Below are positions 36,001 to 39,000 of a stretch of 64,000 nt of DNA, piece after piece. Source of the stretch: an uncultured Nitrospiraceae bacterium (GTDB lineage: Bacteria > Nitrospirota > Nitrospiria > Nitrospirales > Nitrospiraceae); the NCBI GenBank assembly GCA_963706325.1, contig CAVPLT010000004.1, positions 992,001 to 1,056,000 on the forward strand. Reading direction: 5' to 3'. Each line of letters begins with the position of its first letter. Position 1 is the stretch's first letter. The position numbers were made by a program.

Positions 36001-39000
36001 CACCGGATGCTGCGAAGGTGTGGATGCCCTATGCCCGTTATGCCGTGGGCGGGGTCTTGTTCTTTCTGATTCTCTTCATGGTAGTCAGGCCGCTGATGAC
36101 GATGTTGGTGGAATCAGCGCCGGCTTCAGCCGTAGGAGGGACGCCGGCCTTGCCGGCCTCTGTAGGACAGGTCGAAGCCGCCATCAGCGGCAAACAACCG
36201 TCCCAAATTCTGGACATGGCCAAAAATAATCCTGCCAACACGGCCGTGGTCGTCAAACAGTGGCTGAAAAGCAATGCCTAACCGATCACGATCATGAGCA
36301 AGGAACTGTCGGGCGCACAAAAAGCTGCGATTCTATTACGGGCCATCGGGGAGGAAGCCGCCGCAAGCGTCATGAAGGCGCTTGACCCGAAGGATATTCG
36401 AAAGCTCGGGTCCTTTATGAAGGAAACGGCGAATATCACCAAGCAAGAAGAAGAAAGTGTGATCGCTGAATTCGAACAGGCAAGTTCTTCCGGCGAAGTG
36501 CAGTTCGAAGGCCGAGAGTTTATGGAAGCCATCTTGAAAAAAGCGCTGGGCCCCGATAAGGCCGCCCGAATGCTGGATTCTCTAAATACTAAGACCTATC
36601 CCGGCATCGATGCCCTGAAATGGGTGGATCCCCGCACCGTGGCGCAGATTCTAAAAGTCGAGCACCCGCAGACAATTGCCGTATGCCTTGGACAGATGGA
36701 AGCGGAGCAAGCAAGCGCCGTCCTCGCTTTGCTGCCGGTGCATCTACATGCCGACGTCTCGCTCCGGCTGGCCACCATGCAGGAGGTACAGCCAGACGTG
36801 CTTGCGGAGTTGAGCGAGAGTCTGCAGGAAATTCTGGCCGCCTCAATGGGAATGTCCAGTATGACGGTAGGCGGAACCGAACTGATGGCCAACATCCTGA
36901 CGCGAGTCGATAAGAACACCGAAGGCGCCATCATGACCAAAATTACCGAACACGATCAAACGTTGGCCGACAGTATTCGAGCGCTGATGTTTGTCTTCGA
37001 TGATCTGATTGACCTGGACTCCCGAGGCATGCAAGAGCTGATGAAAGAGATTAGCAAAGAAGATCTCCCCGTGGCGCTCCGCGGAGCCGCTCCAGAGATC
37101 AAGGACAAGTTTCTGGCTAATATGTCCAGCCGAGCCTCCGAAATGCTGAAAGAAGACATGGAAGCGCGAGGGCCGGTCAAAGTGTCCGACGTCGAAAGAG
37201 CGCAGCAGAACATACTCAAAGTGTGTCGCAAGCTGGAGGAGGAAGGTCGCATCGTCATCGGTGGGGGCGGGGGCGAGGAGTTGATGTAGATGGGAACCCT
37301 TGCCCTGCGAGCATCGTCGGCTCTGTCGTCTGCCCCAGTATCCGAGAAGGAGCTCTCGCCACGAGCCATCTTGGTCGTAGACGATGAACCGGCCATCTGC
37401 TTACTGTTGACCGAAATGCTGAGTTCCACCGGTCACCCTGTGCTCACCGCCCCTTCCGCGGACGAAGCGCTGGCGCAACTGCGCAGACACCCGATTGCCG
37501 TGCTGATTGTTGACGTGCAATTGGCCACCACCGATGGAATTGCCTTCTTGGAACGGGCGCTGGAAGTCGATAGCCGCATTCTGAGCATCATCATGACCGG
37601 GCATGGCAACATCGAGCTGGCCGTTCGTGCCATGAGAGCCGGGGCTGCGGATTTTTTAACCAAGCCGTTTCAAATCGAATTGGTACGTCTAGCCGTCTCG
37701 CGTCTGCTGGAACTATACCGCTTGCGACAAGAGAATACCGTGCTCACGCGAACTTTGATTCGCTCAGGGAATATCCAGTTGCGGACGGTGCCCTTGGCGG
37801 ATTTTAGCCGCGGCAACAAGTTGTTCGGCACCGATGATGTGACGGAATTTGAACGAGGAGTCGCGGAGGGTGAAAAGCGAGCGACGGAACGCGTGTCGGC
37901 CACGCGAAGTCAGGAGCAGGCATTGGTGACCGCGCTCATGGCCCAACTGGAGCACACGTGGCGCGGGTTGCATGAGACCGTGGAAGAGGAAGTCACGTCG
38001 CTGGCATTCACGATCGCCCAGAAGGTTTTACGCGATGTTGTCACCGAGACACGCGATGTCATCGTAGCGCAAGTACGCGCGGCGCTCGCGCATCTGCATG
38101 AAAGCGGGCTTGTGCGAATCCGCGTGCATCCCTCCGATCTCGCCGTGCTGGAGTCCTCCCGGGCCGCATTGAGCCAGACCCCGCACGGGCTTCTCAGTTT
38201 GAAATTTGAATCCGATCCGAGCATCAGCCCAGGAGGATGCCTGGTGCACGCATCAAGCCTATTGGTTGATGCGACATTAGATACGCAACTGCTGCGGCTG
38301 GGTGACGCGTTACGAAAGCGAGAAACCGGTGAAGCTTAGCGAGCGGCTCGAACAAGTTGAACCGCTCTCCGTGACAGGGCGTGTCGCTCAAGCGGTCGGC
38401 ATCGTGATTGAGGCCTCCGGTCCCTTCACCTCGGTGGGGGAAGTCTGCGAAATTACCCGCGAGGGAGGCCATGGCTCTGTCATGGCGGAGGTCGTCGGCT
38501 TTCGGGAAGACCGTGTTCTGCTGATGCCCCTCGGAGAAATGCAGGGTATTGGGCCTGGAAGCCGTGTGGTGATGAAGGGGCATGTCGCATCCGTGCCGGT
38601 CGGACCACAGATGCTCGGTCGGATTCTTGACGGACTGGGCCATCCGCTCGACGGCTTGCCGCCCGTTCGCGCCGAGGCGCGGGTTCCGCTGTACGCTGCG
38701 CCACTTAACCCTCTGCATCGTGCCCGGATTACACAGCCTGTCGATCTGGGGATTCGAGCGATCAATGCGCTCCTGACCTGCGGGCAGGGACAGAAAATCG
38801 GCGTGTTTGCCGGGTCAGGGGTCGGAAAAAGCGTCCTCTTAGGCATGATCAGTCGATACACGCAGGCTGACGTGAGGGTCATTGCGCTCGTGGGGGAACG
38901 AGGCCGCGAAGTGAAAGAATTCTTGGAGCGCGACCTCACACCGGAAGCCCGAGCCCGATCGGTCGTGGTAGTGGCGACTTCAGATCAACCCCCCCTCGTG

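Follow-up and report, generated by a model that had tools for sequence, protein, structure and literature searches.

A receiver domain, probably duplicated from a FleQ-position activator, on the FliH of a Nitrospira-type family

The FliH/SctL stalk decides the loading of the export ATPase on flagella and injectisomes. In the window, the whole stretch of 64,000 nucleotides from an uncultured Nitrospiraceae bacterium that was analysed here, the gene between fliG and fliI encodes a FliH preceded by a response-regulator receiver. Where did this receiver come from, why is it kept, and does it connect flagellar type III export to a two-component phosphorelay, as an earlier note on this DNA had concluded? 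The fusion gene and its neighbours comprise the following features.

36294..37289 (+): fliG.
37290..38339 (+): REC-fliH fusion gene, 349 residues (open frame, Pfam matches, sole PF02108 match of the genome).
37290..37361 (+): variable, disordered N-terminal tail, residues 1-24 (pLDDT below 50 for residues 1-20; high dN/dS).
37368..37691 (+): NtrC-class receiver domain, residues 27-134 (Pfam, structure and sequence matches, active-site residues).
37380-37385, 37512-37514, 37596-37598 and 37662-37664 (+): receiver residues D31/D32, phospho-acceptor D75, T103 and K125, in this order.
Residues 104-106: GHG motif of the receiver.
37674..37763 (+): extended alpha-5 helix, residues 129-158 (unbroken helix in the model).
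37740..37838 (+): probable original FliH N-terminal segment, residues 151-183 (motif spacing; kept in genome G092).
37845..38048 (+): FliH helical stalk with a GxxxG repeat, residues 186-253 (model, alignment).
37911..38297 (+): FliH domain, residues 208-336, including the FliI-binding C-terminal region (Pfam; 5B0O match).
38302..39636 (+): fliI, export ATPase, likely start GTG at 38329.
39633..40073 (+): fliJ.
45994..46368 (+): fliN, expected docking partner of the FliH N-terminus (role from an excerpt of PMC9114704).

The fusion is a single open frame whose ATG lies right after the fliG stop and whose own stop overlaps fliI. Residues 27-134 match Pfam Response_reg (E 7.6e-23) and residues 208-336 match FliH (E 1e-21), both exceeding the cut-off, and no other protein of this genome (96% complete) matches PF02108. 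The receiver carries D31, D32, D75, T103 and K125, which is the full set of five active-site residues (DD, D, T/S and K) of a canonical receiver (excerpt of PMC12632262). By sequence it is canonical, and it would be open to phosphorylation. The earlier note had described the two domains, the abutting start and overlapping end, the sole FliH and the complete phospho-acceptor set in these terms, and the sequence bears all of them out. Its count of both domains on 116 of 120 homologues is likewise reproduced among the 120 listed, the remaining four being 199-244 residues long; 942 homologues reached E<=1e-3 among 8000 candidates scored. Since the fusion, with its start a few bases from the fliG stop, is present in 56 other genomes, a frameshift or an assembly chimera is ruled out as its source.

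In the AlphaFold model (mean pLDDT 81, pTM 0.42), a disordered tail is followed by the receiver, an unbroken helix (residues 129-158), a poorly ordered stretch (164-179), the stalk helix (186-253) and the FliH head. The receiver adopts the (beta/alpha)5 fold with an rmsd of 1.2 Å to the receiver of NtrX (4d6y) over 117 columns, and the closest solved receivers are those of NtrX, NtrC1 and DctD. The C-terminal part matches Salmonella FliH in 5B0O (E 5.2e-6), and G190 and G194 of the stalk are invariant in 93 sequences. The protein shares with the FliH/SctL family (PF02108; Salmonella FliH, 5B0O) the fliG-fliH-fliI-fliJ position, the GxxxG stalk and the C-terminal domain. However, it has about 150 extra N-terminal residues, comprising tail, receiver and helix, lacks tryptophans of the W7/W10 type, and falls below the cut-offs of the NCBIfam FliH equivalogs (best 82.6 versus 180 bits). 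A complex prediction with two copies of residues 20-175 gave 0.37 against a mark of 0.42, which is evidence neither way.

The range of the fusion was examined in a sample of 401 genomes of the phylum. FliH was matched in 60 of the 75 other genomes of the window's family, which we take to be Nitrospiraceae, and all 60 loci were examined: 56 are fused, or 57 of the 61 family genomes with FliH when the window genome is counted. Outside the family, none of 20 loci examined, drawn from 139 genomes with a FliH match, is fused, and the 89 non-family matches among those listed have frames of 170-302 residues, too short for two domains. Named relatives belong to Nitrospira or Nitrospiraceae; the 14 two-domain matches among 80 loci carry the labels Nitrospira or Nitrospiraceae, with one 'Nitrosospira', and the top four atlas rows with both domains are Nitrospirota. 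No independent REC-FliH fusion elsewhere was found among the matches listed, where the 50%-cluster list, with matches of at least 191 bits, was filled by multi-receiver proteins and an unrelated fusion could score lower. An atlas search with residues 120-349 gave no usable match, and no longer form scored.

The unfused genomes G065, G285 and G309 form one early branch with a short FliH of ancestral type. In G092, which lies deep among fused genomes, the receiver has been deleted in frame and the following linker is kept; its closest relatives (75-81% identity) are fused, and an artefact is ruled out by the presence of the protein in three sources on 5 contigs. A tree of FliF, FliG and FliI from 49 genomes places two changes, one gain and one loss; since the base of the family is unresolved in this tree, the early unfused branch may represent a second loss. 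The receiver is kept in 57 of 58 sampled genomes of the fused clades. The claim of the earlier note that the fusion characterizes "this lineage" is accurate for most of one family and does not extend to the loci outside it, and even within the family one receiver has been deleted in frame, one is a full pseudo-receiver and eight lack the aspartate that binds the metal. With these exceptions the receiver is not indispensable, and it would be a modulator of FliH rather than an essential switch.

The candidate donors of the receiver are two activators near the start of this flagellar cluster, which opens with the first of them and continues with a TPR protein, the PAS kinase, the second activator and flgB.

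26792..28216 (+): FleQ-position sigma54 activator, REC-AAA+-HTH, with an intact receiver; probable source of the copy (profile, alignment, trees).
28391..30562 (+): TPR protein between activator and kinase, conserved in position.
30559..31854 (+): PAS histidine kinase in the FleS position.
31851..33269 (+): second sigma54 response regulator, in the FleR position; not the source of the receiver.
33385..33400 (+): sigma54-type (-24/-12) site upstream of flgB, conserved in position in relatives.

The supplement of PMC5767232, in the part available, labels as fleQ, fleS and fleR the genes that would correspond to these by gene order and length. When a profile of the fusion receivers was searched against the genome (139 receiver hits), the FleQ-position activator scored 128.6 bits, the next hit 100.3 bits and the FleR-position regulator 91.8 bits; the activator was also the best non-FliH match in five of five other genomes. 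Over residues 22-156, the fusion is 41% identical to the activator versus 31% to FleR, and its alpha-5 helix is homologous to the coiled-coil linker of the activator up to residue 156. The activator is present upstream in all 40 regions examined, with a receiver in 38; G369 and G388, where the activator frames showed no receiver, were kept out of the receiver trees. A careful tree of 59 rows, from which the degenerate G136 was also left out, unites FliH and activator receivers in one clade (support 97/97). In this tree a grouping of FliH with FleR was rejected (p-AU 0.018), removing FleR as the source, and positions of the FliH receivers inside or sister to the activators are both compatible (p-AU 0.129). 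A quick tree of 130 rows places all 27 FliH receivers as one clade within the activator clade (SH-aLRT 99). These comparisons support the view that residues 22-156 of the fusion, which hold the receiver and the long alpha-5 helix, arose by duplication of the input part of the FleQ-position activator. In this event, which would date to the base of one Nitrospira-type family or close to it, a copy of roughly the first 155 codons of the activator would have been placed ahead of fliH.

The sigma54-type site upstream of flgB heads the gene run that contains REC-fliH. Of 74 loci, 64 have a site with a score of at least 8 of 12 ahead of flgB, in most cases 44-65 nt from its start. Since the pattern gave 20 matches in the whole window versus 19 expected by chance, only the conserved position in relatives counts. 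Single sites at score 8 were often matched by shuffles. Given the site before flgB, REC-fliH is probably transcribed under one of the two activators, and the duplication would be a clean example of an input domain of a regulator copied onto a gene probably under that regulator. The activator orthologue is missing from four of the five FliH-less genomes tested, which ties the activator to the flagellum.

The earlier note had placed the wiring at the level of the ATPase complex. This goes beyond the evidence, since a receiver copied from the FleQ-position activator makes feedback on transcription a live alternative. The copied receiver might act on its parent, draining phosphoryl groups or pairing with it through the receiver and the alpha-5 helix, and FliH made from the sigma54-driven flgB operon would report the assembly state according to whether it is free or docked at the basal body. 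This alternative, which we regard as unlikely, would fit a copy that derives from exactly this activator with the dimer helix included, as well as the conserved flgB site and the absence of the activator from most FliH-less genomes, and checkpoints feeding sigma54 two-component systems are known in polar flagellates (excerpt of PMC7064773). However, R138 is present in 27 of 27 fusions and L139 in 26 of 27, where the activator has K and A, and such a fusion-specific helix fits self-pairing better than cross-pairing. The g4, g5 and g6 activators have lost the helix motif, whereas their FliH proteins have kept it. In g5 and g6, FliH and the activator do match in their changes at position 42 and D+2; as these changes are a single event in the activator tree, we rejected them as support for co-evolution. 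In addition, a fusion and an activator from one genus are scarcely closer in sequence identity than a pair from different genera, and control of the flgB site by the activator is itself presumed.

Why the receiver is kept can be approached through its active site. Of the 57 genomes, 56 retain D75, T103 and K125, 48 retain the complete active-site set of five, and 55 retain the small residue after the threonine, G104, at a mean receiver identity of 56%. D75, T103 and K125 are also present in 114 of 115 full-covering homologues. Only 20 of 133 columns are kept in at least 55 of the 57 genomes, and D75, T103, K125 and P126 are among them. The exception, G136, lies on a long branch and has lost the acceptor D, T and K alike, making it a full pseudo-receiver. 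In this genome, where function seems relaxed, the residues were lost together, which indicates that they decay when unneeded; elsewhere they have not decayed. In eight further genomes the second aspartate is missing; this residue is a direct ligand of the metal, and a receiver that has lost it is by definition a pseudo-receiver (excerpt of PMC12632262). The dN/dS of the receiver in three genera is 0.08 (14 pairs), 0.15 (76 pairs) and 0.08 (18 pairs), the pairs not being independent, which is equal to that of the FliH core and unlike the adjacent tail, where residues 2-22 show values of 0.34-0.58 and a mean identity of 17%. To judge from these substitution patterns, the receiver is under purifying selection. 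An accidental duplication that persists because it is harmless could tolerate the one clean loss and the one degeneration, but this account is largely refuted by the dN/dS values, conflicts with the retention of the receiver in all but one of the sampled genomes of fused clades, and seems very improbable.

The source of a phosphoryl group was sought among the kinases. None of the 51 HisKA matches in the genome, whose neighbours were listed (6 unparsed), could be tied to the FliH receiver. At the positions that we take to contact the kinase, compared between genera in 26 genomes with the degenerate G136 left out, identity is 48% versus 50% domain-wide for the FliH receiver, 53% versus 55% for the activator and 90% versus 70% for FleR, and the FleR pattern stands beside an almost invariant kinase helix. 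Since FleR shows an excess at these positions and neither the FliH receiver nor the activator does, the adjacent FleS-like kinase looks dedicated to FleR, and a cognate pairing of FleS/FleR type was not found for the FliH receiver. At what we presume to be the specificity positions, the activator ranks second of the 129 receivers of the genome in likeness to the FliH receiver; with a same-genome identity of 46% at these positions versus 41% overall, this likeness may only reflect ancestry. The conclusion of the earlier note that export is wired directly to a phosphorelay thus stands in its anatomical part, with an active site that is intact and conserved, and goes beyond the evidence in the word "directly", given the fruitless kinase search and a neighbouring kinase that appears to serve FleR.

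The lack of excess conservation at the kinase contacts would also suit a module that works independently of phosphorylation, in which receiver and helix cap the N-termini of FliH so as to dimerise or stabilise them, and folding is the main reason why the active site persists. We do not expect this to be the explanation, although it deserves weight: G136 keeps a full pseudo-receiver, eight genomes do without the second aspartate, and the alpha4-beta5-alpha5 face is 58% identical versus a domain average of 50%, though the two activators are alike in this respect. Against such a cap, the catalytic residues D75, T103 and K125, with P126, belong to the small set of nearly invariant columns, and their joint loss is confined to the long branch of G136.

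What the receiver could act on depends on how it joins the old protein. FliH is a dimer whose N-terminus docks the FliH2-FliI complex at the C-ring, and in Salmonella W7 and W10 of this N-terminus bind FliN and FlhA (excerpt of PMC9114704). In the fused proteins, an [IV]L[KT] motif precedes the stalk by 36 residues. In the unfused sister genera, where it stands close to the N-terminal end, the distance is 34-37 residues, and the receiver-less protein of G092 retains the motif. From this spacing and the G092 motif, the original FliH start can probably be placed at residues 151-153, within the end of the copied helix, so that the receiver was probably added and the docking segment not swapped out. 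Residues 151-183, partly disordered in the model, would then be the docking region for the C-ring and FlhA; no tryptophan like W7 or W10 of Salmonella occurs in them. A profile of 20 unfused FliH N-termini gave no significant match to the 57 fusions (best 1.8 bits). The N-terminal region evolves fast, and fused g4 proteins also miss a profile from the fusion's own linker.

The window protein has the features of an NtrC1-type module, namely the helix at residues 129-158, the GHG motif and relatives among NtrX, NtrC1 and DctD. In receivers of the NtrC1/DctD type that have a long linker helix and GHG, the off state is a dimer, and phosphorylation rearranges it (excerpt of PMC10696123). The fusion shares sequence, fold, long alpha-5 helix and GHG motif with the NtrC1/DctD/NtrX receivers that have a coiled-coil linker, but its output is FliH instead of an AAA+ domain. 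GHG is present in 13 of 14 copies of the window's own genus, and GHG/GYG has been lost from 29 of 29 copies of genus g2.

The best explanation in our view, held tentatively and short of calling it probable, is that phosphorylation re-packs the NtrC1-type helix that runs into the docking end of FliH and thereby tunes loading at the C-ring. The receiver, which retains the residues for phosphorylation chemistry, may be phosphorylated by a donor shared with the FleQ-like activator, and this donor would set the phospho-state of FliH. Because the copied alpha-5 helix appears to run straight into the old FliH N-terminus, the phospho-state could free or clamp the docking ends of the FliH dimer, and loading of the export ATPase onto the basal body would be tuned in step with flagellar gene activation. 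The steps beyond the sequence anatomy are what we infer. A wider form, which we consider doubtful, is that the activator's receiver was grafted onto the ATPase stalk so that one phospho-signal serves both the gene activator and the assembly machine, with undocked FliH feeding back as a phosphoryl sink or dimer partner.

The location of FliH at the C-ring would keep the receiver close to the switch, and one might imagine a second, CheY-like motor input in which the tethered receiver, when phosphorylated, binds FliM or FliN and changes rotation or brakes the motor. FliM retains an N-terminal peptide of what we take to be the CheY-binding type. However, the best hits of the receiver are NtrC-class and not CheY-class, and the genome has a separate chemotaxis cluster with CheW-domain and MCP genes and with genes read by eye from their sequences as CheY (single-domain), CheA and CheB. 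With this separate cluster, the FliH receiver is no stand-in for CheY, and a role of this kind is hardly credible.

The layout of activator, kinase and second activator at the cluster head is like that of the FleQ/FlrA and FleSR/FlrBC/FlgSR checkpoint, and the FleQ-FleS-FleR order has been noted for Nitrospira (excerpt of PMC5767232). FleQ is discussed among pseudo-receiver regulators (excerpt of PMC12632262), whereas the protein in the FleQ position of this cluster retains the complete set of five receiver residues. In the FleQ/FleSR/FlgSR literature searched, no structural export protein with a receiver was found, and PMC7064773 does not mention FliH. The nearest functional analogues are free receivers that act on pilus ATPases: DrdR on PilB/PilT (excerpt of PMC13507683) is likewise a receiver positioned for post-translational control of an ATPase in a motility machine, and the PATAN regulators, as far as the available excerpts go, are receiver proteins that act on a pilus motor. 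Those proteins are free-standing and belong to type IV pili, whereas the present receiver forms one polypeptide with the stator stalk of a type III export ATPase.

As the earlier note had said, the fusion is visible in annotations: CUS31637.1 already bears the architecture as a public label, and NSND_50302 in a supplementary table of PMC5767232 has the same architecture by label, in rows that, in the part available, give neither origin, distribution nor mechanism. No published discussion of the fusion was found in a search lying mostly outside subscription journals, where a passing mention is possible. The origin from the FleQ-position activator, the pattern of gain and loss and the evidence against FleS as the donor are new here.

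If the wider form of the explanation is true, FliH would contain a flagellar assembly checkpoint, and a type III export ATPase complex would be controlled directly through a phospho-aspartate. In the literature searched, no precedent was found for such control, and no phospho-aspartate switch on the FliH/SctL stalk. The natural fusion and its natural controls, namely the in-frame deletion, the pseudo-receiver and the unfused sister genera, make phospho-switched export loading testable, and with the same set one could test for feedback from the assembly state to a FleQ-type activator. The fusion hints at a putative link between the switching on of flagellar genes and the loading of the export machine, and it bears on how Nitrospira-type nitrifiers of wastewater and drinking-water biofilms commit to costly motility.

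All five receiver residues are present in the FleQ-position activator (window 26792-28216), the sigma54 activator that heads the flagellar cluster and from which the duplicated receiver of the REC-fliH fusion derives, and it lacks a neighbouring kinase gene of its own. The alpha-5 coiled-coil motif of this activator has decayed in the genera g4, g5, and g6. In genome G303, the activator is kept (71-72%) with fliA directly after it (locus L231, G303:C4:147000-166500), and neither fliG nor fliH was matched in this genome. This locus is the regulatory remainder of a flagellar cluster that has been deleted. 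The fusion itself occurs as a natural pseudo-receiver in G136 (locus L045, G136:C1:3054110-3066481), where the acceptor D is changed to G, T to V, and K to V; the fusion receiver of G083, from the same genus, is intact.

Other features in and beside the flagellar cluster (window positions)
26457-26532, minus strand: tRNA-Thr(TGT), just upstream of the cluster
28361-28375: sigma54-type site (pattern match) before the TPR gene
28391-30562: TPR protein of 723 aa with a hydrophobic N-terminus, flanked by the activator and FleS-like kinase genes
40034-40714: MgtE_N-domain gene after fliJ, weakly like FlbB
44376-44390: sigma54-type site (pattern match) before fliL
54999-55874: GGDEF-domain gene inside the cluster, after flhF, flhG, and fliA
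56099-56113: sigma54-type site (pattern match) before flgF

The match to the sigma54 pattern is exact in two of the three sites, and the window-wide count of such matches does not exceed chance. Adjoining the tRNA gene, at about 26220-26400, a short stretch resembles the C-terminus of a tyrosine recombinase, as judged by eye from the motif of these enzymes. Together, they probably mark a mobile-element insertion site.

In nearly all loci class-wide, the TPR gene lies at this same place, with the activator on one side and the FleS-like kinase, a PAS histidine kinase, on the other; the TPR protein is a candidate for an accessory sensor that serves the FleS-like system. In the genomes of loci L095-L098 (family f2), the kinase frame at the FleS position is much shorter (about 280-300 aa), and the kinase of G159 has a deviating helix after the phospho-histidine. 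The MgtE_N-domain gene keeps its position after fliJ across the window's family, and the GGDEF-domain gene possibly provides a c-di-GMP input to the same flagellar system.
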